A stretch of DNA of 40,703 nt from IMG/VR virus record IMGVR_UViG_3300010285_000005; one strand, given 5' to 3'. Below, piece after piece: positions 3,353 to 29,103 of this stretch. Position numbers and translations under genes: made by a program. The notes beneath the pieces are model-generated. The model ran no database searches. It worked only from the letters and a program-made list of their open reading frames with translations, and was not told where the DNA came from. How positions within the stretch are numbered: the stretch's first letter is position 1; each line of letters opens with the position of its first letter. The stretch is from a virus.

Positions 3353-3529
3353 TTAATAGACCACCGAACCGTCCGAATAATCGGGTTCATACGGCTTCCC
3401 GTCGTCCAGACACTTCCGAATGATCTTGACGATCTGACCATCGTCCAGGTGTCGTAAATGGAAGATCGGAAAGTTTTCGTTGAACCGATCGGCGTATTCG
3501 GTCAATTTTTCGCTTAATGTATCACTCAT
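3353..3529 (-). CDS. Small hypothetical protein (58 aa, below ORF-track cutoff)
   Basis: ATG at 3529 with GAAAGGGTGA RBS overlapping the MuF gene stop. Translation MSDTLSEKLTEYADRFNENFPIFHLRHLDDGQIVKIIRKCLDDGKPYEPDYSDGSVVY. Fills an otherwise empty gap. Confidence 0.5.
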   Translation of the reverse strand: MSDTLSEKLTEYADRFNENFPIFHLRHLDDGQIVKIIRKCLDDGKPYEPDYSDGSVVY

Positions 3530-3533
3530 GGTA

Positions 3534-5432
3534 TCACCCTTTCAGGATTTCTTCAAGCATTTCAAGGAAAATTTTATAAGATTCGGGGAAGTATTTCTTG
3601 ATCGAATCCAGTGATTCAGGGTTCGTCAGCGTCGCTGAAAACATTTCGGCGAAGGCTTCTGTGGGAAGCGTGGTGTCCCGATTCCAGTATGTTTTACCAT
3701 GACCGAATCCACCGTTGACCTTTCCTTTTGTGACACCTTCAATCATATCCGAAATGTCGGATCGTGCCATCTGTGGGATTGCACGGATTTCTTTTTCCAG
3801 TTTGGTGTATGCCATAGACTTTGAATATTTAGGCATACCACCGATCAGCGTTCCGTTCTGTTTATAGAAATTATAATACCAGTCCCCAATATAACCGTTG
3901 TCGTGTAACCATTCGATGTCGTTCCCGTGAACCTTGAAATCTGCTTTTATTTGCGCTGCATAAGCGTCTACACGGTCATTGATTTCTTTTTTCAGGCTGT
4001 CAACGAAAGCCCCGTTCTTGTATGTGTAAGAATAGGGCTGGAAGTTGTAACCGTTGCCGAATTTGACATTCGCAATATAATCGATATTATGACCGAATTC
4101 ATGGAACGTGGTCTGATACGGTGCTGACCAGGATTTCCCGTTTGCGTCGGCACTCACGTCCATTTCAATTCCGGCTGCACCGTGGCAGCACGGGTGACGC
4201 TTGCTTGTCGCACTGACAACACGAAGATCGGATTCAAGCTTGCCCCACACGTCACGAACGACATCGGGGGCTTCGTTCAGCTTTTCATGTAAAGCCAGAT
4301 AATGCTTTTCACCCAGCTTCTGATATACTTCGCTTTTGTCATTTATGGGAAGTTTTGCCTTTAGAATAGCACCCGCATCGACTTCAGTCAAGCCGTCCTT
4401 CGATCCGTCGCTCATGAAGGTCTTTTTCCATTCAGCATATGTCATATTCGACGGCACATAATAGGTCTTGCCATCAGAACCCCGTGCAGCACGTTCCCCG
4501 AAGTTATCATCGAAGAAGGGAATTGTCGTGGTTCTGCACCAGGGGTGAAAGGGCGGTGCTGTGACACCGACTTCATAGTCCTTCATATCCACGACTTTCC
4601 CGTCAAGGCTCTGGCACAGTTTGCTGGTCAGGTTGTCCAATGTGGCGACGATTTCAAAGCGATCCACACCCAGGTCTTTGAAGCAGTCCTTCTGTGCCAG
4701 ACTGCTGAACGCAGCCGATTCAGTCATCACCAGGCGGGCTGACTTCGATTTCGACACATGGAACTGGTGCTGAATGGCCTTAATTGCCCGATCGGGGGGA
4801 TCGCCACGAAGTATGTTCTGCGTAAGCTGCGTCTGGACGGTGTTGACCAGGCTGTCCTTGTCAATCCATACCCGATCCCTGAAAGTCTTCATGTCGTTCG
4901 TCCAGGGCTTCGACAGCACCATATCAAGCTGTTTACTGTTCGGGGTCATCATGTTCCAGCCGACATTCAGACCCCGCTGGATTTCATATGCGGTGTGGGA
5001 ATAGCTGTCTATGTATGTCCGGCGAAGCAGCTTGTCCAGATCGTCCAGCTGGTTTCCATAAAGGGCTTCAATCTGCTGCTGCGCCTGAACCTTCAGGGCT
5101 TCCAGGCGGGTAATGTGCATCTTCGCCGAAGCATTTTCAAGCTGCTTCAGCCACCTTTGATCGATGGCGTTTTCCCGACCATACTTGATGTAGTCTTCGA
5201 CCGTCCACTTGAATTCTTCAAGTTCTTTCGTGTTCAGCAGCCTTCGGGCTTCGGTCATGCTGATCTGATTGTTGTCGGCGAATCGCTGATACCAGGCGTT
5301 GATCTCTTTTTCGATCCTGGCAGAAGCCCGTCTGTATTCCCGTTCAAGGGTTTCAATATAAGCTTCGCCTTTCCTCGCCTGGGCTTCAATCAGGATTTCA
5401 AAGCGTCCACGCCAGTAATCGCTGTTTTTCAT
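3534..5432 (-). CDS. MuF/SPP1 gp7-like head morphogenesis protein fused to a C-terminal anthrax-LF-like (HExxH) metallopeptidase domain
   Basis: The N-terminal ~330 aa sit after the portal, as in the SPP1 gp7/MuF family. The C-terminal ~280 aa carry HEFGHNIDY plus a downstream EAFAEMF, matching the LF/ATLF zinc-ligand pattern HEFGH...E-FAE-F. Confidence 0.7.
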   Translation of the reverse strand: MKNSDYWRGRFEILIEAQARKGEAYIETLEREYRRASARIEKEINAWYQRFADNNQISMTEARRLLNTKELEEFKWTVEDYIKYGRENAIDQRWLKQLENASAKMHITRLEALKVQAQQQIEALYGNQLDDLDKLLRRTYIDSYSHTAYEIQRGLNVGWNMMTPNSKQLDMVLSKPWTNDMKTFRDRVWIDKDSLVNTVQTQLTQNILRGDPPDRAIKAIQHQFHVSKSKSARLVMTESAAFSSLAQKDCFKDLGVDRFEIVATLDNLTSKLCQSLDGKVVDMKDYEVGVTAPPFHPWCRTTTIPFFDDNFGERAARGSDGKTYYVPSNMTYAEWKKTFMSDGSKDGLTEVDAGAILKAKLPINDKSEVYQKLGEKHYLALHEKLNEAPDVVRDVWGKLESDLRVVSATSKRHPCCHGAAGIEMDVSADANGKSWSAPYQTTFHEFGHNIDYIANVKFGNGYNFQPYSYTYKNGAFVDSLKKEINDRVDAYAAQIKADFKVHGNDIEWLHDNGYIGDWYYNFYKQNGTLIGGMPKYSKSMAYTKLEKEIRAIPQMARSDISDMIEGVTKGKVNGGFGHGKTYWNRDTTLPTEAFAEMFSATLTNPESLDSIKKYFPESYKIFLEMLEEILKG

Positions 5433-20526: not shown

Positions 20527-21148
20527 TTTTCTGACCCCCTTCTATGATGAAAACTTCACGGTGTTGCTTGCCGAATTCGACGGCTTCCTGGTGATCGGTG
20601 AAGTATATGTCGATGACCTTGCCGTCATAGTAATCTGCGACCCGTTGCGCTGTCCTATCGTGGACTATGTAATTCCCCAGGCCGTCAATATAGATCGATG
20701 TTCCGAAAGGTAACGGGGAAGCCACAGATACCCCAGGTTGAAGAATGACATTCGCTGCACCTTTAACGATCGGTTCGCCAGTCACTGGATCGATCGGCCT
20801 GTTCAAAGCCCAGTCACCGCAACAGGTTTCACACGAACAGTATGCTGTGATCGTATATTCTCCCAGGGGTGTCAGCCGGATCAACGGTTCGGGTTCGAGT
20901 TCTGGCTCTTGTTCTTCAAATTTGAGTTCCGTTATTAGTTCAGCATCTTGAACTTTTTCGGTAAAAAAATTAAGGTGTTCCGCCATTTGTGGCGGTGATA
21001 ACCCCTTTGAAGTGTCCTTCTCCGACCTTGACGGTTTGATCAGAATCGACATCGCCGTCATTCCGATTATAACACCCAGGGCGAAAAATACCACATTCAA
21101 ATTGATCCGTTTACTTGATTTGGCCTTCATATTCCGTGAATAGTTCAT
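20519..21148 (-). CDS. Membrane-anchored 3D-domain (MltA/YabE-like) cell-wall protein
   Basis: N-terminal TM VVFFALGVIIGMTAMSILI, an acidic PE linker, then TAYCSCETCCG...PLPFGTSIYIDGLGNYIVHDR...IDIYFTDHQEAVEFG (3D-domain pattern). Confidence 0.65.
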   Translation of the reverse strand: MNYSRNMKAKSSKRINLNVVFFALGVIIGMTAMSILIKPSRSEKDTSKGLSPPQMAEHLNFFTEKVQDAELITELKFEEQEPELEPEPLIRLTPLGEYTITAYCSCETCCGDWALNRPIDPVTGEPIVKGAANVILQPGVSVASPLPFGTSIYIDGLGNYIVHDRTAQRVADYYDGKVIDIYFTDHQEAVEFGKQHREVFIIEGGQKNE

Positions 21149-22388
21149 CAGTATAATCCTTTCGCATTTTCAGTGTGTCAAGAATGTGTTCCTCAACGCT
21201 GTCCCGACACATCATGTAATAATAAAAGCAAGTGTTTTTCTGTCCCAGCCTGTGTGTCCGTTTGTGGCTTTGAATCCACTGTTCGGCACTCAACGGCAGG
21301 GTGAAATAAATGGTCTTGTTCGTTTTCTGAAGATTCAACCCCATCGATCCGGCCTGGTATTGAACGAATGTGATCGAATCGGATCGGGTTTCGTATGCTT
21401 CCAGGTCTTTCGTCTGCCCGTTCACTATGGAACACGGCCTTTCAAAGTGTTCGCAGATTGCCAGCAGCTTGTCCAATTCTTCGTTGAAGTTGTAAAACAC
21501 GATCAGCCTGTCACCAGTGCTGTTGATCAAGTCCCTGAAAGCTTCAAGCTTGTCCTGGTTAAACTGTCCGCACAACATTCGGGCATATAACAGCTTCGTC
21601 AAGGCTGTGTCACCGACCAGTTCACGACCTTCCACCGTGACCAGCCTGGACTTCATGAACTTTTTGTATTCTTTCGACGATTCGACCGTGACGGGAACGA
21701 TGATCTGCTCTGGAAGTTCGATTCCGGCTTCCTCGGTTTTCATGAAGATCGCACCGTGTTCAGCCAGCTTCCGCTTCAGCCGATCGACGTTCTTATAACC
21801 GACGATTGCTTGTCTGAAATGTCCGTCACCGTCATCGACCCACACCGTTTCGACATACTGCTTCATGAATGTGTCTTTTCGGATCGACCAACCCAACAGC
21901 TGGATTTGTGACCAAAGTCTTTCATATTTTCCGTCTGTGGGCGTTCCCGACAACAAAATCACATTCTTCGGCTGCAATTTCATTACGAACTTTGTCCGCT
22001 TTGCCGTTTCGTTTTGGATCAGCGAAGATTCGTCCAGCATCAGGGTGAAATCTCGTAGCATCAGCAATTCGGGTCTTCTGAACGTCAGTTCATAATTGAT
22101 GATCCCGATCTTCGGACTGCTTTCGACCTTGCAAAGAAAATCGACCAGTGCGTCCTTCTTCGTTAGATCGTAGACCAAAAATTCAGGATAGTTTTCCTTG
22201 AAGTGATTGATCCAGTCTTTGATCTTCGATTTCTGACAGATCAGAAGGTTCACATGACTTCCCAGGACAGCCAGCTTTTCGCTTCCGACGAAGGTTTTCC
22301 CCAACCCCATGTCCATATAATAGGCCACACGGTTGAAGCCCTTCGTCCGTTCCAGGACTGATCGCTGGAATCCGAACAGCTGGATCAT
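21111..22388 (-). CDS. SNF2-family helicase/ATPase
   Basis: MDMGLGKTF (motif I), LMLDESS (motif II), LLSGTP, and a C-terminal QAGSMGLNLQ. Confidence 0.8.
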   Translation of the reverse strand: MIQLFGFQRSVLERTKGFNRVAYYMDMGLGKTFVGSEKLAVLGSHVNLLICQKSKIKDWINHFKENYPEFLVYDLTKKDALVDFLCKVESSPKIGIINYELTFRRPELLMLRDFTLMLDESSLIQNETAKRTKFVMKLQPKNVILLSGTPTDGKYERLWSQIQLLGWSIRKDTFMKQYVETVWVDDGDGHFRQAIVGYKNVDRLKRKLAEHGAIFMKTEEAGIELPEQIIVPVTVESSKEYKKFMKSRLVTVEGRELVGDTALTKLLYARMLCGQFNQDKLEAFRDLINSTGDRLIVFYNFNEELDKLLAICEHFERPCSIVNGQTKDLEAYETRSDSITFVQYQAGSMGLNLQKTNKTIYFTLPLSAEQWIQSHKRTHRLGQKNTCFYYYMMCRDSVEEHILDTLKMRKDYTDELFTEYEGQIK

Positions 22389-22804
22389 GTCAGGCCACCG
22401 ACATATTCAAAGAACTGCTTCGGGTTTATGTAGTATGTGTAAACGCTCGACATTTTGACCGCCACACCGAAGGGCAGTTGACCACGCTGAAGCCCAACCC
22501 TGATAAAGTCCTTTGAAACGCCCATGATTTTCGCTGCCTGATCCACGGTGATCCGTTTACTGTTTAGGATCAGTTCCGCTTCTTCCTGATCCGCTGGTTC
22601 GTCCTCTGTTGTGCCGTCCAGCCATGATTCTTCGACATTCAAAACTTCGGCGAACAGCCGGATCGTTTTCTGCCTGGGGACGTTCTTGCCGGAAAGATAC
22701 TGGCTGATCGAAGATTTTCCGATCCCCGTCGCTGCTGAAAGATCGGCCTGGGTCATTCCCGCATTTTGCATCGCCGTCTTCAGCCGTTTTGCAAAAATCG
22801 TCAC
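22385..22804 (-). CDS. Two-domain DNA-binding protein: XRE-type HTH plus excisionase/MerR-like HTH
   Basis: MTQADLSAATGIGKSSISQYLSGKNVP, then ITVDQAAKIMGVSKDFIRVGLQRGQLPFG. Confidence 0.65.
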   Translation of the reverse strand: MTIFAKRLKTAMQNAGMTQADLSAATGIGKSSISQYLSGKNVPRQKTIRLFAEVLNVEESWLDGTTEDEPADQEEAELILNSKRITVDQAAKIMGVSKDFIRVGLQRGQLPFGVAVKMSSVYTYYINPKQFFEYVGGLT

Positions 22805-22839
22805 TTGATATGACCCCCCTCAAAATGTTCGTTGAAAGT

Positions 22840-23064
22840 TCAGGAATTCTGAACTTTTATCGTAAAAAAATAGATGCTGATTTCGTCCTTCGGGATACCA
22901 AGCAGATCGGTTGCCAGGTCAATTTCTTTTGTCGTGAAATCGACCAGACCGTTCAGTTTCTTCGACAGGGAAACGCTGGACATTCTCATGGCCTTTGCGA
23001 AGGCGGTTTCCGTTCCGAAAACTTCACGAATCTTTCCACGCAGCTTGCAATAATCAAACATCAA
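22840..23064 (-). CDS. Cro-like XRE-family HTH protein
   Basis: 74 aa. TETAFAKAMRMSSVSLSKKLNG resembles an HTH. Confidence 0.55.
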   Translation of the reverse strand: MMFDYCKLRGKIREVFGTETAFAKAMRMSSVSLSKKLNGLVDFTTKEIDLATDLLGIPKDEISIYFFTIKVQNS

Positions 23065-23077
23065 GCATCACCCCCTT

Positions 23078-23701
23078 TCACTCCGCTTCTTCCATCAGGC
23101 AGTCACAGTCTTTGCAGACGATCCTGACTTCTTTCGTCGCTCTGACTTTTGTCCCGCAATCTGGACAGACGTATTTTCTGGACGAAGATTTCTTCTTCGC
23201 TTCCAGCTTCAGCGTCTTTGTCCGATGAAGGGTGAAGCCTGATTCGTTGTTGAACATCGACGTGATCCAGGAAGCAGCTTCTTCGGTCAGCGTGGTTATG
23301 CACCAACCATATTTTTGATGCTTTTCGACTGATAGACCGTGCTGTTCAGCAGCTTCTTTGAATCGCTTGTTGTGATACAGCCCGCTGCGTGACGTGTCAT
23401 GAACACCTTCCTGAAGGTTCAGAAGATGTACCATTTCGTGAATCAACGTGCTGCACGTTTCAAGAAATGGCCTGTTCAGGTATTCGGCGCAGATGTTGAT
23501 TTCATAATATCCTTCAGTTTCGTTGCCCGAACCATCTGCCCAGGCTTTCCAGCTTGTACACCAGCCATATGAACCCCTCGTCGTGTCCGGCGAAACGGTG
23601 ATCACTGGTTTTGAAAGTTTATTTTCAAAAAAGTGATCATTGAAAACACCGAACAGACGATCCAGGTCTTCGATGACTGGTTTCAGACTAACGCTGTCCA
23701 T
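23078..23701 (-). CDS. SprT-like zinc metallopeptidase with C-terminal zinc ribbon
   Basis: HEMVHLLN (HExxH) and CPDCG...CKDCDC. ATG at 23701 is preferred (GAAAGAAGG upstream). The track start is 23719. Confidence 0.7.
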   Translation of the reverse strand: MDSVSLKPVIEDLDRLFGVFNDHFFENKLSKPVITVSPDTTRGSYGWCTSWKAWADGSGNETEGYYEINICAEYLNRPFLETCSTLIHEMVHLLNLQEGVHDTSRSGLYHNKRFKEAAEQHGLSVEKHQKYGWCITTLTEEAASWITSMFNNESGFTLHRTKTLKLEAKKKSSSRKYVCPDCGTKVRATKEVRIVCKDCDCLMEEAE

Positions 23702-23786
23702 CGATCGACCTTCTTTCATATTCGTGTTTTTTGCAGTTTACCAGATTTCCTGTCCAATAAAACGGACAGTATGCTGACGATGGCTG

Positions 23787-23846
23787 TCGGGGTTGTGACC
23801 GTCTGCCCGCCCGCATTACCCCGCCAGAAGGCGGGTCACTCTGCGT
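23787..23846. repeat. Conserved structured element, copy A (60 nt)
   Basis: tcggggttgtgaccg tctgc cccgcattacc CCGCC-agaa-GGCGG gtcactctgcgt. It ends where the stop codon (23846-23848) of the upstream ORF begins. Confidence 0.8.
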
Positions 23847-24082
23847 CAATCGCATCTTGTTTCCCTGTAAAGCCGGAAAAGGGCTTTTAAGTCTTTTCGT
23901 GTCCTCGGCACTGGGACGAATTCACTGTTCGCCGGATCGTGGAATCGACGTTCATCTTCACCGCTGATCCAGTCAGCGATCTGTTGATCTTCCCAACATT
24001 CGATGATTACGTCACCGCCCCTGTTGTAATTTTCAAGTGCCAACCTTTTGACTTCTTCGACCGTCAGCATCTTCTTTGCCAC
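23846..24082 (-). CDS. Hypothetical early protein (78 aa)
   Basis: GTG at 24082 lies 8 nt after AAGGGGG. The track ORF 23846..24163 extension overlaps the upstream gene. Confidence 0.45.
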   Translation of the reverse strand: MAKKMLTVEEVKRLALENYNRGGDVIIECWEDQQIADWISGEDERRFHDPANSEFVPVPRTRKDLKALFRLYRETRCD

Positions 24083-24102
24083 AATGTTGACCCCCTTTCG
24101 CC

Positions 24103-24408
24103 TTATGCGAAAGTTGAAGCCTTGCGTCTTGCCATAATTTCCGCACGTTGCGTCCCAGCCCACAAGACGGTTTCCTTCGCCAGTCCGATCTGTTTACCCG
24201 TTAGGTATGCGATCCGACCGTCACGGCTGTTCATCACCGCCAGCAGCAGATCGTTCAGATCGTCTAACAGCTTTTCCAGCCTTTCAAGTTCAGCGTTCGT
24301 GGCCTTGATTTCGCCGGACAGAATGTCATAAATGATGTTCTTTACACGGTTTCTGCGGAATTCGATGTCGTGTGCGTGTTTCTGAACCGAAAAAGGATAA
24401 AGCTTCAT
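24103..24408 (-). CDS. Hypothetical early protein (101 aa)
   Basis: ATG at 24408 with AAGGGGG RBS. Track ORF is 24103..24438. Confidence 0.45.
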   Translation of the reverse strand: MKLYPFSVQKHAHDIEFRRNRVKNIIYDILSGEIKATNAELERLEKLLDDLNDLLLAVMNSRDGRIAYLTGKQIGLAKETVLWAGTQRAEIMARRKASTFA

Positions 24409-24421
24409 TTCGTTGACCCCC

Positions 24422-24736
24422 TTAATATGAATATCCAAAAATCATCACGTCCGTAAACCCTTCAAGCCGTGTGGACTTTTTGATTTTGTTGTTCCAACGA
24501 TACGCCCGCAGACCGCCACGCTTGCCGATGAATATTTGACGTTTCTTTCTGCACAAGACCGAAGCAAGCGTCCCTTCGTCGTCCTTCAGGCCAGTCACGA
24601 TATAAAGCTGAACGAAATCGCCTTCGTCGGTGATCTCAAATTCCTTGATTTCATAGCGTGGATCGTTCCTGAAAAGATCGTTCTGTTCGATGTATTTTCT
24701 GATCTTTGCGATCGCTGCTTCCTGATGACGTGTCAT
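24422..24736 (-). CDS. Hypothetical early protein (104 aa)
   Basis: ATG at 24736 with AAGGGAAGGAA RBS, which begins 13 nt downstream of element B. Confidence 0.5.
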   Translation of the reverse strand: MTRHQEAAIAKIRKYIEQNDLFRNDPRYEIKEFEITDEGDFVQLYIVTGLKDDEGTLASVLCRKKRQIFIGKRGGLRAYRWNNKIKKSTRLEGFTDVMIFGYSY

Positions 24737-24766
24737 GTCTGTCGTTCCTTCCCTTTATTGTTTTGA

Positions 24767-24822
24767 TCGGGGTTGTGACCGATCCCCCGCATTACCAGGG
24801 CGAAAGCCCTGTCACTCTGCGT
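24767..24822. repeat. Conserved structured element, copy B (56 nt)
   Basis: tcggggttgtgaccg at-c cccgcattacc AGGGC-gaaa-GCCCT gtcactctgcgt. Its gtcac supplies the TGA stop (24812-24814) and the last three codons (N-A-E) of the upstream ORF. Confidence 0.8.
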
Positions 24823-25087
24823 TTTTCAGTTGCTGGTATTCTTCAGTTAGCCGTGCAAGCTGGGACTTCGTTGCCATGATCTTGTCTTCAAGTTCCTTTG
24901 CTTTTTCGGCTGTAGGGATCATGTCCATGATTATCCGCATACCGAACATATTGAAAAGCTGTGCAATTTCGTCCTTGCCTTTGGTGTCGCTGATCGACGG
25001 GTGATATGTATAAACGAATTCAATTTTCTTGTAATCGCTGTCACTGACTGGCCTGGAAGTTCGGCTTTCAAATTCTTGTCTTGTCAT
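24812..25087 (-). CDS. First early-operon protein, hypothetical (91 aa)
   Basis: ATG at 25087 lies 9 nt after AGGGGG. The track start is 25111. No HTH is recognisable. Confidence 0.5.
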   Translation of the reverse strand: MTRQEFESRTSRPVSDSDYKKIEFVYTYHPSISDTKGKDEIAQLFNMFGMRIIMDMIPTAEKAKELEDKIMATKSQLARLTEEYQQLKNAE

Positions 25088-25136
25088 TAAGTTTAACCCC
25101 CTGATCTGCATTAGTTCATTTTACTGATCAATTTTT

Positions 25137-25152
25137 GTTCATGATCCTGAAC
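25137..25152. promoter_or_regulatory. Candidate operator palindrome GTTCATGATCCTGAAC at the early-promoter start site
   Basis: Perfect 5-bp half sites GTTCA/TGAAC with a 6-bp spacer. Additional half sites at 25114-25118 and 25240-25244. Confidence 0.45.
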
Positions 25153-25160
25153 CTGATTAC

Positions 25161-25189
25161 ATAATACACTATCTCCACCCCGATGTCAA
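25161..25189 (-). promoter_or_regulatory. Early (lytic) promoter
   Basis: Minus-sense TTGACA (25189-25184), 17-nt spacer, TATTAT (25166-25161). Confidence 0.6.
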
Positions 25190-25228
25190 CACAAAAATAA
25201 AGTTTTCTTAACTTTCATTAAATTTATG

Positions 25229-25257
25229 TTGATTTTTTCTGAACTATAATTTATAAT
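25229..25257 (+). promoter_or_regulatory. Repressor (maintenance) promoter
   Basis: TTGATT (25229-25234), 17-nt spacer, TATAAT (25252-25257). The ATG at 25267 lies about where transcription would start. Confidence 0.5.
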
Positions 25258-25266
25258 GGTAATAAA

Positions 25267-25977
25267 ATGAAATTAAAAGTTATAAACCAACATGAACCCA
25301 CAAGAAACGACAACAGTGAAAGGAAGGATAATCAAAAGACCATGAAAGAATCATTCAAAGACCGTCTTCGTCAGGCCATGACGCTTTGCAACATGAAACA
25401 GGCTGAACTGTCTGAAATCACTGGCATCGGAAAATCAGCAATCAGTCAATATGTTTCCGGCAAATACGAACCAAAACAGACCCCGCTTTATCTTATAGCG
25501 AAAGCCCTCGATGTGAATGAAGCCTGGTTGATGGGCTTTGATGTCCCGATGGAAAAGAATGACACCTATAAAAACGACAAAATTTCTGAAGTTGAAGTAA
25601 AGAAATATCCACTTCTAAAAGCCGTTGACGAAAATCGTACTATATTTGAAGAAGATTCTTTACAAGTCATACTTCCTCACAATTATCTGATCGACGCTGA
25701 TTTTTGTTTAATCGCACCCGACGATAGCATGACGGGGGCGGGTATCAAAAAAGACGACTATGTATATGTGAAAAGTCAGCCGTCAGTGAATAATGGTCAG
25801 ATCGCTGCTATCGTGTGCGGGAAGGAATTGATGCTTCGGCGCATTTTCAAAGAAGGGGACACCTTCATTCTTTCTTCTGAAAACCCCGCATATCCACCGA
25901 AAGTGTTCCCAGCTTCGGGGAAAAACAGCGTCACGATCCTGGGACTTGCAGTCATGACGCAATCGCTAATTAAATAA
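25267..25977 (+). CDS. CI/LexA-like repressor: XRE HTH plus peptidase S24 domain
   Basis: QAELSEITGIGKSAISQYVSG (HTH). S24 motifs APDDSMTGAG (Ser154) and ELMLRRIFKEGDTFILSSENPAYP. An alternative start is ATG 25342 (MKESFKDRL). Confidence 0.8.
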   Translation: MKLKVINQHEPTRNDNSERKDNQKTMKESFKDRLRQAMTLCNMKQAELSEITGIGKSAISQYVSGKYEPKQTPLYLIAKALDVNEAWLMGFDVPMEKNDTYKNDKISEVEVKKYPLLKAVDENRTIFEEDSLQVILPHNYLIDADFCLIAPDDSMTGAGIKKDDYVYVKSQPSVNNGQIAAIVCGKELMLRRIFKEGDTFILSSENPAYPPKVFPASGKNSVTILGLAVMTQSLIK

Positions 25978-25978
25978 C

Positions 25979-25994
25979 GGTTCAAGGTTCAAGG
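25979..25994. repeat. GGTTCAAGGTTCAAGG (two heptamer units), upstream arm of the int promoter cassette
   Basis: Exact reverse complement of CCTTGAACCTTGAACC at 26083-26098. The same 16-mer occurs as CCTTGAACCTTGAACC at 9613-9628. Confidence 0.85.
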
Positions 25995-26036
25995 TTGCTT
26001 CTTATATTTAATATTTTTCATTTTTTTAATTTTTGA

Positions 26037-26066
26037 TTGACAGAAAAAACATGATCAAAGTATAAA
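26037..26066 (+). promoter_or_regulatory. Candidate int promoter
   Basis: TTGACA (26037-26042), 18-nt spacer, TATAAA (26061-26066), within the AT-rich spacer between the inverted heptamer arrays. Confidence 0.4.
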
Positions 26067-26082
26067 ATTCAAGAAATATACA

Positions 26083-26105
26083 CCTTGAACCTTGAACCTT
26101 GAACC
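26083..26105. repeat. Three tandem CCTTGAA heptamers (+CC) between the int promoter and the int RBS
   Basis: ccttgaa ccttgaa ccttgaa cc, read directly from the sequence. Confidence 0.9.
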
Positions 26106-26136
26106 CTAAAAACCACTGAAAGGGGGGTGATGGGTT

Positions 26137-27165
26137 GTGCGAAATCCGAATGGATATGGATCGGTTGTGAAGCTGTCCGGCAACAGAAGAAGGCCATATT
26201 GTGCAAGACGAACCATCGGCTTCAATGAAAAAGGACACCCGATATATAAAGCGATCGGGTATTATGCGACCCAGGACGAAGCACTGATCGCCCTGGCACA
26301 GTACAACAAAACGCCGTATGACCTCGACCTGGCTAAAATTACACTGAAAGGGTTGTATGAATTGTTGATGAAACGTGATGATGAAAAGCAACGTGACAAA
26401 TTCTCAAAATCCACTAAAGCTGCTTTGAGGGCATCGTTCAAGAAAAGCGAACACCTTTGGAACGTCCAATATAGGGAAATCAAAGCGTTCCATATGCAAG
26501 AAATTGTCGATGGTTGTGGTTTAAGTTATGCCACACAAGGTCACATAAAGACCTTCTTCACGAAGCTGGACGAACTTGCACTTGAACTGGACATCGTGTC
26601 GAAGACATATTCATCTTTGATCCGTGTCGATCCTGTACCAGAAACATCGAAAAAACCATTCACCGAAGAAGAAATAAAACTGCTGTGGGAACACAAAGAC
26701 GAACCGTTTGTCGATTCAGTCCTGGTGCTTTTATATTCCGGCTGGAGAATCAACGAATTCCTGTCATTGAAAAGGGAAAATGTGAATATTGAAGAAGGCT
26801 GGTTCAAAGGGGGATCGAAGACCCGCAGCGGAAAGGACAGGATCGTCCCAATCCACAGCAAAATCTTCGACATCGTGAAACGTCAGTATGAAAAGGGAAA
26901 CGAATTCTTGTTTGACTATAAAGCCGAAACGGGCAAAAAATCGTTCAATTATTACGACGGCTGGAATCAAGTCATGCAATCCCTGGGAATGGAACACACC
27001 CCGCACGAATGTCGCCACACCTTCCGATCCAGACTGGACGCTGCTGGTGCAAATAAGGTCAGCATCAATCTGATGATGGGTCATAAATCGTCTGATGTCG
27101 GTGAAAGGGTTTATACACACAAAACGATCGAACAGCTGCGTGAAGCCATTGAAATGATAAAATGA
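26137..27165 (+). CDS. int: Tyrosine integrase with AP2-like N-terminal arm-binding domain
   Basis: GTG start after GAAAGGGGGGTGA. N-terminus NGYGSVVKLSGNRRRPYCARRT. C-terminus HECRHTFRS (HxxR) and GERVYTH (Tyr nucleophile). Confidence 0.85.
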   Translation: MRNPNGYGSVVKLSGNRRRPYCARRTIGFNEKGHPIYKAIGYYATQDEALIALAQYNKTPYDLDLAKITLKGLYELLMKRDDEKQRDKFSKSTKAALRASFKKSEHLWNVQYREIKAFHMQEIVDGCGLSYATQGHIKTFFTKLDELALELDIVSKTYSSLIRVDPVPETSKKPFTEEEIKLLWEHKDEPFVDSVLVLLYSGWRINEFLSLKRENVNIEEGWFKGGSKTRSGKDRIVPIHSKIFDIVKRQYEKGNEFLFDYKAETGKKSFNYYDGWNQVMQSLGMEHTPHECRHTFRSRLDAAGANKVSINLMMGHKSSDVGERVYTHKTIEQLREAIEMIK

Positions 27166-27415
27166 CTATCTAAAATCGAAAACAATTCAAGGATCAAAAC
27201 TTGATTGATCATAAAATTGAACTAATAACGCATTAGTAACAAAAAAGCCGGAAGCCTTGAAATATCAAGAACTTCCGGCGATTTCAAAATTATTATATCA
27301 TAGTTAGTTCAGAAAATCCGATCCTTGAATTGCAAGCGTTTCAAGGCTTGTTCAATTTTCTAAACCGTATAAAACCCCGCAAAATCGTGTTCGTTAGTAA
27401 CACATTAGTAACATA
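27166..27415. other. Probable attP region
   Basis: 250-bp non-coding gap between int and the lysin. Inverted CCTTGAA(27323-27329)-10 bp-TTCAAGG(27340-27346) is a candidate core. Phased 8-mer dyads CTAATAAC/TTAGTAAC (27222-27240) and TTAGTAAC/TTAGTAAC (27394-27412) are candidate arm sites. Confidence 0.5.
27241..27279 (-). terminator. Rho-independent terminator after the lysis cassette
   Basis: Minus-sense GCCGGAAG..CUUGA-UAUU-UCAAG..CUUCCGGC followed by UUUUUU. Confidence 0.65.
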
Positions 27416-28426
27416 TCACACGGGCTGTAAATGCGATTTTTTGACCGCTGCGGTGACTGTTTTTCCGATCCCGATGACCACCCTGTCACCGCTGATCTGA
27501 ATCACGTCATACTGGTCATAATAGGTCTTGAAGGCTTTCCCGTCATAGGTGACGGCCTTCAAGACTTTTACTTTGCCACCGACTTTGATTTCAGCTTCCG
27601 TGGCCTTGCTGATCGTCGATGCATCGACCCAGCCATAAACACCCTTTGTAAAGTTTCCGTTTGCGTCGATTGCCCTGACGTGATAGGGGTGCTTTCCGGC
27701 GACATAGATCGAAGTGATCTTCGCCTTCGACGCTGCGACCCACGAACCGCTGACCGCCGTCGCTGAAGGATAGTGCAAGCCCCCAGCGAAGGAAACAACA
27801 TCACCCACTTTGAAAACCCCGCCTGACGTGTTCTGTGCGTCCTGGACGGGTTTTTCTGTTCCCTGGGTATTTATATTCATCGCAGCAGCAACGTCACGCC
27901 TGAAGCCGTCCATCGTCAGCCCGAAGGCTTTCCAAAGGTGTTCGACATCGCCGTGATTACTGGCGATCCCCAATGCATGACCTTCGCTATGACTTATGAT
28001 AACATTTTCCCCCAGCGGATTCAAGTGATACATTTTGCAAAGATAAGCGAACAGCTGCACGGCTGTCGCATATGTGCGAAGGACATGATCTTTTGTGACG
28101 ATCGGATTCAGATCGACCCAGGAAGCCCCGCCAGTATATTTGATCGTCGCTGGTTCTGTCATTTCGATCCCGATGTGGGTGTTGTTGCAGCTGCCCCCAC
28201 CGTGCCAGCCACGATGATCCCAGGGAAGTAACTGGAAGACGTTATCTTCAGCATCGACGATGCCATGAACAGCGACTTCGACACCTGGTTTATTCCAGTT
28301 GTTGATGAAGACAGAAGCCTTCGGCTGCGGACAGCCGACGCTGTGCAGCATCAGTCCCTTGACAGTGATCTTCCGTCCGGCCTTGTAACAGTCATTTTTT
28401 GTGATGAAAGTTTGTGTGATCGTCAT
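27416..28426 (-). CDS. Endolysin: N-acetylmuramoyl-L-alanine amidase (Amidase_2/PGRP) with C-terminal SH3-like repeats
   Basis: MLHSVGCPQP...WHGGGSCNNTHIGIEM, plus two repeats of FKVGDVV / IKVGGKV type. Confidence 0.8.
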   Translation of the reverse strand: MTITQTFITKNDCYKAGRKITVKGLMLHSVGCPQPKASVFINNWNKPGVEVAVHGIVDAEDNVFQLLPWDHRGWHGGGSCNNTHIGIEMTEPATIKYTGGASWVDLNPIVTKDHVLRTYATAVQLFAYLCKMYHLNPLGENVIISHSEGHALGIASNHGDVEHLWKAFGLTMDGFRRDVAAAMNINTQGTEKPVQDAQNTSGGVFKVGDVVSFAGGLHYPSATAVSGSWVAASKAKITSIYVAGKHPYHVRAIDANGNFTKGVYGWVDASTISKATEAEIKVGGKVKVLKAVTYDGKAFKTYYDQYDVIQISGDRVVIGIGKTVTAAVKKSHLQPV

Positions 28427-28650
28427 TTCTGATCACCGTCCTTTTCTTTCACCCTCGCAGCATCGACCATTCCTTCACCGATTATGTATGCGATCAAGGT
28501 TGCACCAGCCGTGATGATTGCGATGATCTGTTCAATGGTCAGATCGTCTACCCTGAAAGCGGTCAGAACGCACGTCACGAACCCCGTGGCCGCAGCCCAA
28601 AACTTTCGACTTGTCAGCTTTGACTTCCAGTCTATTTTCATACTTTTCAC
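28423..28650 (-). CDS. Holin
   Basis: 75 aa with two TM segments (FWAAATGFVTCVLTAF, IIAIITAGATLIAYII) and a charged C-terminus. Overlaps the lysin start. Confidence 0.7.
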   Translation of the reverse strand: MKSMKIDWKSKLTSRKFWAAATGFVTCVLTAFRVDDLTIEQIIAIITAGATLIAYIIGEGMVDAARVKEKDGDQK

Positions 28651-28653
28651 CCC

Positions 28654-29103
28654 TTATATTTGAATCGTGATGTCTTCCTGGATCGCTTCAATCATTGTCT
28701 GATCGACTTTGCTGGTCAGGGCTTCATCGATTTTTGAAAGTTCATTTTCAATTTCATGCTGTTGATCCGGCGAATGATCTTTCATCAGCTTCAGCTTCAG
28801 CTTCAGGAATTCTTCTTTTCCCTTCAGGCAGTTTTCAATCTTCGCCTTGTTCAGATAGAAGACGATCGCTGCGCCATAAATCCCGCCAGTTGACGGGATC
28901 GTGTACACGAAGATCGAAGTGTCTTTTCCGAACCAGGCGAAGATCGTCGCTGCGATCAGCTGCGAAATGAAGATCAGCTTTGTTTGATCCAGAATCTTTT
29001 TTGAAAACTCTTTTTTACTGCCCGCCGTGATCGATCGCACAGTGTTCATCAAGCCTTTTGTGGGCTGCTTTCGTCGATTCATCGATCCTTGCCACCCGTT
29101 CAC
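28654..29103 (-). CDS. Two-TM membrane protein in the lysis cassette (start uncertain; ATG 29049 possible)
   Basis: LIFISQLIAATIFAWF and GGIYGAAIVFYL, followed by a coiled-coil tail. The 5' end overlaps the XhlA-like gene. Confidence 0.5.
   Translation of the reverse strand: MNGWQGSMNRRKQPTKGLMNTVRSITAGSKKEFSKKILDQTKLIFISQLIAATIFAWFGKDTSIFVYTIPSTGGIYGAAIVFYLNKAKIENCLKGKEEFLKLKLKLMKDHSPDQQHEIENELSKIDEALTSKVDQTMIEAIQEDITIQI

Follow-up and report, generated by a model that had tools for sequence, protein, structure and literature searches.

Two predicted type-P5 twister ribozymes at gene boundaries in the early operon of a temperate phage or prophage

The twister class of self-cleaving ribozymes, whose first description (Roth et al., 2014, Nat Chem Biol 10:56) is taken here as reported in later articles (PMC6765202, PMC5408937), is defined by the stems P1, P2 and P4 and by two pseudoknots, T1, between the loops L1 and L4, and T2, between a 'GC' of L2 and two bulged nucleotides of L4; P4 is extended by an additional invariant G-C pair and a U-A pair, and the scissile site is a U-A in the junction J1-2, with a conserved A 3' of the bond (PMC5408937). 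Bacterial twisters share neighbourhoods with hammerhead ribozymes and are found close to phage genes, and a role in polycistronic processing was proposed for them (PMC6765202). Prophage hammerheads flank individual genes or small gene blocks, which implies processing of long phage transcripts, and circular or spliced products of hammerhead arrays were sought and not found (Perreault et al., 2011, PMC3088659). Ribozyme-rich neighbourhoods also led to the pistol, hatchet and twister-sister classes (Weinberg et al., 2015, as cited in PMC6765202). Here we describe two elements, each of approximately 58 nucleotides (nt), in the virus record IMGVR_UViG_3300010285_000005 (40,703 nt, the whole stretch being hereafter called the window), which very probably are type-P5 twister self-cleaving ribozymes in the early (lytic) operon of a temperate phage, catalysis being predicted from their membership of the class.

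An earlier annotation of this DNA (hereafter the original prediction) had placed the elements at 23787-23846 (copy A) and 24767-24822 (copy B), with the blocks tcggggttgtgaccg, cccgcattacc and gtcactctgcgt common to both, and direct reading of the sequence, a repeat search and a pairwise alignment all agree with this. The two copies constitute the longest direct-repeat families of the region, D1 and D3, with a spacing of 976-980 nt, and, when aligned together with their flanks, they present 79% identity over 95 columns; outside the element the identity collapses. A 6-bp hairpin, which corresponds to stem P1, differs between copies A and B in three pairs and, as had been noted, all three changes are compensated (C-G->A-T, C-G->G-C and C-G->G-C). 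The strand, however, had been given as plus, and the functional one is the minus strand, the same as that of the genes. All long open reading frames (ORFs) of the region are on the minus strand, and so the transcript is the reverse complement of what had been written; the gene-sense RNA of copy B reads CGCA GAGUG AC-AGGGC-UUUC-GCCCU-GG U^AA UGCG GG GGAUCGG UCACAACC CCGAUC.

A cmscan of the whole window against Rfam 15 (4227 families, gathering thresholds) gave exactly two matches, both to Twister-P5 (RF02684, gathering score 37.6 bits) and both on the minus (gene-sense) strand only. Copy B matches at 24821..24767 (60.0 bits, E 3.6e-10) and copy A at 23845..23787 (55.5 bits, E 5e-9), each along model positions 1-58 of 58, a similarity far outside what chance would produce. 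All other matches in a permissive local Rfam scan had E-values above 3, far below gathering, and no hammerhead, pistol or hatchet was found in the window by cmscan. The original prediction could not assign the element to any ribozyme class and had itself named a confident Rfam match to a known family as the result that would end the claim of novelty; that claim therefore fails. This is a known ribozyme class in its usual habitat, and no new RNA class.

We checked both copies against the published definition, and every defining twister feature was found in each of them (Table 1). Stems P1, P2 and P4 are present both in the covariance-model alignment and in the minimum free energy (MFE) folds, the energy of the copy B fold having a z of -3.1 relative to shuffles. 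T1 is formed by GUG/CAC in the two copies, a compensated change with respect to the Rfam consensus GgG/CcC, and T2 by GG/CC, compensated relative to the GC/GC consensus. Since T1 and T2 are not modelled in the covariance model, they constitute evidence independent of the Rfam score. L1 is GAGUG, L4 is G-U-CAC-A-A-CC-C, with G/C and U/A in place, and GGU^AAUGCG occurs in both copies. Of the 29 positions given in upper case in the Rfam consensus, 26 agree; of the other three, two make up the compensated T2 pair. The order of the parts, P2 (3' strand), L1, P1 hairpin, UAA, P2 (5' strand), L2 and P4, is that of the circularly permuted type, with P1 capped by a loop and the ends of the element at the P5 position; no P5 helix was evident when the 5' and 3' flanks were examined for one. 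The pseudoknot suspected in the original prediction is thus borne out by the presence of T1 and T2, and the proposed pairings are redefined: GTGAC...GTCAC does not close the whole element, its GUG/CAC part being T1, and the CGGGG/CCCCG pairing blends stem P4 with T2.

Relatives of the elements were sought with the exact-core pattern CGCAGAGTGAC...GTAATGCGG...GGTCACAACCCCG, which was scanned against IMG/VR viral contigs and GTDB genomes. This core was found in 38 IMG/VR viral contigs, one of which (L026) has an identical 4.5-kb fragment with both window copies unchanged, and in 15 GTDB genomes, all of them metagenome-assembled genomes of Clostridia (Oscillospiraceae, Ruminococcaceae, Defluviitaleaceae, Limiplasma and others). 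Among 48 distinct copies P1 is free in sequence and in length and is still paired, with 97.3% of the cells paired versus 38-47% when the partners were slid. A covariance model (R1) was built from these 48 copies and searched in the related loci and the window, where it matched 75 copies, corresponding to 65 distinct sequences, to which the following numbers refer. The paired cells amount to 97.6%, versus 28-42% with slid partners, changes on both sides are observed in 12 of the 19 pairs and none of 500 shuffles reached the observed covariation score. Double changes affect all six pairs of P1, two of the four of P2 and two of the four of P4, with 95-100% of the cells paired in these stems. G-C to A-U changes are seen in P2; the middle pair of T1 is UA in 60 relatives, CG in 2 and GC in 2; and one T2 pair is GC in 50 and CG in 12, with a further T2 variant, AC/GU, at L042:1307. 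P1, P2, P4, T1 and T2 thus all covary, and some relatives contain an optional P3 hairpin in L2. The identical core in 53 independent loci, together with the freely covarying P1, points to purifying selection on the whole fold and not on one hairpin. The selection on RNA pairing that had been proposed from the two copies is consequently recovered in the relatives, in which the hairpin pairing is conserved and the stem changes are compensated.

The strand specificity of these matches bears on the suggestion, made in the original prediction, that the elements form a structure in single-stranded DNA (ssDNA). Such a structure could be, for example, an ssDNA promoter or an origin-like site, and an antisense RNA of the plus strand was considered together with it. 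The plus strand does fold with a similar energy, the helices being self-complementary in either sense, and its loops are GAAA and AGAA. However, the Rfam matches are on the minus strand only, co-oriented with the genes, all 75 model matches fit a strand-specific model in one orientation, and the neighbouring ORFs are on the ribozyme strand for most of the 69 copies whose gene boundaries we examined. In addition, the helices contain G-U wobble pairs, which fit an RNA of the minus (gene-sense) strand and would turn into A-C on the other strand, and this double-stranded DNA temperate phage has no evident stage of ssDNA transfer. Given the strand-specific covariation, the probability of this explanation is practically negligible.

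Several observations weigh against the assignment as active twisters. The third difference from the Rfam consensus, A39, is a G in copy B and a C in copy A, and is variable among relatives, and in this subfamily P1 has, beside the cleavage site, an A·G pair in place of a Watson-Crick one. In copy A, L2 exceeds that of copy B by 4 nt, one outer P4 pair is non-canonical in the Rfam alignment, and the MFE fold, which does contain P2, P1 and P4, has a z of -0.6, indistinguishable from shuffles. Given the mismatched outer P4, the longer L2 and the ordinary folding energy, copy A may be less active. In copy B, the UGA stop codon (24814-24812) of ORF 25111..24812 is located inside the L1/T1 strand, as had been stated, so that terminating ribosomes would transiently melt P2 and T1, and cleavage would have to be co-transcriptional or to take place between ribosomes. 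Moreover, the in vivo role of bacterial and phage twisters is unresolved in the literature (PMC6765202, PMC8782182). The imperfect P4 and the unremarkable folding energy of copy A would also suit twister-derived relics that no longer cleave, or structured RNAs that have been reused, for example for protein binding or as mRNA-stabilising hairpins. Nevertheless, no catalytic-core position and no pseudoknot is impaired in either copy, and the same core is kept in the 53 independent loci while P1 covaries freely, so that we consider relics or reused structures very unlikely.

Same-strand arrays of two to five ribozymes recur in the related loci, as observed in Rfam scans and in the R1 search (Table 1), with spacings of approximately 280-1330 nt, that is, of one to three small genes. 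The gene boundaries were analysed with a simple ORF heuristic in 69 twister copies of the window and the related loci. The upstream stop codon abuts or overlaps the ribozyme in 59 of the 69 copies, its end being at -4 to +2 nt from where the ribozyme starts in 39, and in 20 it is, according to the heuristic, a UGA inside the conserved GAGUGAC of the T1 strand (for example, window 24812-24814, L002:8056, L008:9708 and L046:1352). A start codon preceded by a Shine-Dalgarno sequence follows 16-39 nt past the ribozyme in 53 of the 69. The abutment of stop codons in most related copies indicates a general property of this twister subfamily and, where the stop is inside GAGUGAC, the end of translation and the folding of the ribozyme would be in competition for these nucleotides. 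In the window, copy A starts exactly at the end of the UGA of ORF 24163..23846, also in line with the original prediction. The statement that the copies occupy the only sizeable intergenic gaps of the operon does not strictly hold, as there is a gap of approximately 270 nt at 23077-22805, further downstream.

Pfam matches are scarce in the proteins encoded next to the ribozymes: the 59 distinct downstream proteins match only 8 families, and the 64 upstream ones 10. Sporadic flanking families in the 53 loci are ArdC-like anti-restriction proteins (ArdcN plus MPTase-PolyVal), the anti-CRISPR AcrIC5, HIRAN, GemA and ERCC4, which hints that the early genes bracketed by ribozymes may include anti-defence functions.

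The location of the copies exactly at gene boundaries, the high diversity of the flanking genes, mostly orphans with an occasional ArdC-like or AcrIC5 gene, and the identical core sequence in unrelated contexts could alternatively be explained if the ribozymes mainly marked recombination or module boundaries for the exchange of small early-gene cassettes, cleavage being secondary. Yet homologous recombination would not be efficient with the blocks shared exactly between loci, which have only 9-13 nt, and the variable parts covary for RNA pairing, including that of the pseudoknots, which a signal acting at the DNA level does not need. Furthermore, pistol and hammerhead ribozymes, which have unrelated structures, occur at equivalent positions of the arrays, which argues for cleavage as the selected function, and we regard such a boundary-marking role as highly improbable. 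A mobile or boundary repeat had likewise been put forward in the original prediction: the location at gene boundaries, beside highly variable small genes, stands, but only the 9-13-nt blocks are shared between loci, and nothing among the results examined, in which terminal repeats and target-site duplications were not searched for, points to mobility. Of the three hypotheses raised there, the cis-acting RNA involved in processing is the one that the twister identity favours.

Some features of the related loci were observed in addition. In the minus-strand array of L005, with copies at 4377-4438, 3373-3428, 2721-2782 and 532-593, neighbours alternate between core variants, one with P2 CACA/UGUG and T1 GCG/CGC and the other with P2 CGCA/UGCG and T1 GUG/CAC or GGG/CCC; in this small sample, the alternation might limit mispairing between neighbouring copies. 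Other Rfam matches in the related loci are an RT-18 RNA (L002:2426-2503, plus strand) and an abiF RNA (L028:2751-2787, minus strand). A transfer-messenger RNA gene is present at L042:7012-7394 (minus strand), approximately 3.5 kb from the ribozyme array of that locus; integration of a prophage next to ssrA may be the reason.

An integrase, a CI/LexA-like repressor, a divergent promoter and an endolysin (Table 1) identify the window as DNA of a temperate phage or prophage, whose host is probably a member of the Clostridia. No tRNAs were found in the window, and positions 21000-29000 matched none of 50,697 GenBank phage records in a megablast comparison. The candidate early promoter, a strong promoter-like site, is divergent from the CI-like repressor gene and would drive the ribozyme-containing operon, whose order on the minus strand is ORF 25111..24812, twister B, three orphan ORFs, twister A, a small hairpin, the SprT-like gene, a helix-turn-helix (HTH) regulator and an SNF2-type helicase. 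The three ORFs between the ribozymes have no Pfam or NCBIfam match, and one of them has a weak PHROG match of unknown function. An identical 12-mer, GTTGACCCCCTT (minus strand AAGGGGGUCAAC), is located at 24086-24097 and 24412-24423, just before two of these ORFs, for which it is probably a strong Shine-Dalgarno context. The hairpin and the SprT-like gene follow copy A, as had been described, and the latter has no obvious Shine-Dalgarno sequence; the hairpin is not terminator-like, and the minus-strand terminator scan reported no site there. Three copies of a TTCTGAACTTTTAT-like 14-mer were also identified, two in the divergent repressor/early-promoter region (25205-25218 and 25237-25250) and one upstream of the HTH gene (22847-22860, within an inverted repeat at 22830-22862), and are putative operators for the immunity switch.

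Table 1. Coordinates of the ribozymes, of their parts and of the neighbouring features in the window, and ribozyme arrays in related loci (L numbers).
Feature	Coordinates	Strand	Details
Twister copy B	24765..24822	-	RF02684 match 24821..24767, P4 reaching 24765
Copy B, P2	24821-24818 (CGCA) with 24791-24788 (UGCG)	-	
Copy B, P1 hairpin	24811-24796	-	
Copy B, T1	24815-24813 (GUG) with 24777-24775 (CAC)	-	read from sequence; covaries in relatives
Copy B, T2	24787-24786 (GG) with 24772-24771 (CC)	-	read from sequence
Copy B, P4	24784-24779 with 24770-24765 (GAUCGG/CCGAUC)	-	
Copy B, predicted scissile bond	U24794 / A24793	-	aligned to Rfam consensus positions 30-32 'UAA'
Twister copy A	23782..23846	-	RF02684 match 23845..23787
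Copy A, P2	23845-23842 with 23815-23812	-	
Copy A, P1 hairpin	23835-23820	-	
Copy A, T1	23839-23837 (GUG) with 23797-23795 (CAC)	-	
Copy A, T2	23811-23810 (GG) with 23792-23791 (CC)	-	
Copy A, P4 core	23801-23799 with 23790-23788	-	then interrupted helix to 23782
Copy A, predicted scissile bond	U23818 / A23817	-	aligned to Rfam consensus positions 30-32 'UAA'
Amidase endolysin	28426..27416	-	
Tyrosine integrase	26137-27165	+	
CI/LexA-like repressor	25267-25977	+	with S24 peptidase domain
Candidate early promoter	25161..25189	-	TTGACA-17-TATTAT, 11/12 consensus matches; consensus match only
First early ORF, 99 amino acids	24812..25111	-	phrog_31564, function unknown
Three small orphan ORFs between the ribozymes	24736..24422, about 24410..24103, about 24090..23846	-	from the ORF list
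Small hairpin	23750..23769	-	CUGUCC-8 nt-GGACAG; between ribozyme A and SprT-like gene, outside the ribozyme
SprT-like metalloprotease-domain gene	23078..23719	-	PF10263 E 1.3e-7; phrog_6361 E 5.9e-41
HTH gene	22804..22385	-	
Array	L042:1307-3499	+	five twisters
Array	L005:532-4438	-	four twisters and one weak match at 1776-1842
Array	L032:4799-7495	-	three twisters and hammerhead II
Array	L037:2984-4773	+	two pistols and two twisters
Array	L043:6910-7403	+	twister and hammerhead II
Arrays	L015, L018, L024, L028, L031, L035, L041, L048		two twisters each

Two other kinds of transcript signal were considered for the elements. A Rho-independent terminator, for which a GC-rich hairpin with a U-run after it is expected on the transcribed strand, was discarded, as there is no minus-strand terminator-like site at either element, where the P1 hairpin is followed by GUAAUGCG. 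Phage antitermination sites, such as lambda nut boxB and HK022 put, take the form, in the transcript, of boxA/boxB or of paired put stem-loops, whose function is of the N type or involves binding to RNA polymerase. A nut- or put-like site was set aside without a formal test, because the strand that carries the GNRA-like loops (GAAA and AGAA) is not the transcribed one, and no conserved block is left unaccounted for by the twister fold.

Once transcribed, each element would fold into the double pseudoknot formed by P1, P2, P4, T1 and T2, and would cleave itself at the U^A that separates P1 from P2 (24794|24793 and 23818|23817). The computations show that the elements belong to the family and have its complete fold; from this membership, the reaction is expected to be assisted by Mg2+ and to give a 2',3'-cyclic phosphate and a 5'-OH. 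The polycistronic early mRNA would then be cut into three parts: the first gene, the three-gene block, and the SprT-like gene onward. At each cleavage, the stop codon would remain on the upstream product, whose last element would be the stable P1 hairpin with the 2',3'-cyclic phosphate, and the downstream product would begin at the 5'-OH and present the P4 (and optional P3) hairpin shortly before the next ribosome-binding site (RBS). Neighbouring cistrons could thereby differ in stability or in translation efficiency, and we infer that cleavage would in this manner affect their expression.

Double cleavage would free an RNA of 976 nt (24793..23818, the length being computed from the predicted sites) with the three orphan ORFs. 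Given the identical cores and the type-P5 order, one half-ribozyme would stand at each end of this RNA, the 3' half of B at the 5' end and the 5' half of A at the 3' end. Together they could rebuild a nicked twister, through P2, T1 and T2, which would juxtapose the 5'-OH and 2',3'-cyclic phosphate ends, and the ends might be ligated by the reverse reaction or by the host RtcB. We ascribe a very slight probability to the circularisation of this RNA into an exonuclease-resistant tricistronic phage mRNA. The alternating cores of L005 make some of the hybrids mismatched, so that circularisation is not general to the arrays, and the search for circular products of hammerhead arrays (PMC3088659) also speaks against it.

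As a discovery, the finding of these twisters has little value, since the class was described in 2014 and is found here in its typical genomic setting. The locus is, nevertheless, a clean annotated example, in which two twisters bracket a three-gene block of an early operon that comes after a CI-type immunity region, and it could be of help in addressing what self-cleaving ribozymes do for phages. Three regularities of the Clostridia phages could guide experiments: the tight packing of stop codon, ribozyme and RBS; the same-strand arrays of up to five ribozymes; and the neighbours, mostly orphans and occasionally anti-defence genes.

In the engineered 'Tornado' system two twisters reportedly flank an RNA, and their cleavage is said to leave 5'-OH and 2',3'-cyclic phosphate ends for ligation by RtcB. 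The locus described here also has two twisters flanking an RNA; however, Tornado is engineered, with designed pairing of the ends, and this array is natural. With respect to the neighbourhoods of Weinberg et al. (2015), the related loci mix twisters with pistol (L037) or hammerhead II (L032 and L043), whereas the window itself holds two twisters only. The resemblance to the clustered prophage hammerheads (PMC3088659) lies in the several same-strand ribozymes around variable genes, with ardA next to the ribozymes of those arrays and ArdC-like and AcrIC5 genes next to some of the twisters here. The ribozyme class is different, and those hammerheads cleave in vitro and in vivo, whereas cleavage of the present twisters is predicted. 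The closest system is the type-P5 twister itself (RF02684), with which the elements share the full-length match, P1/P2/P4, T1/T2, the L4 pairs and U^AA, as well as the Clostridia and phage contexts. They differ from it only at the level of the subfamily, in having GG/CC instead of GC/GC in T2, a U-A middle pair in T1, the A·G pair of P1 by the cleavage site and no evident P5 helix, the flanks at the P5 position being here the upstream stop codon and the downstream RBS.

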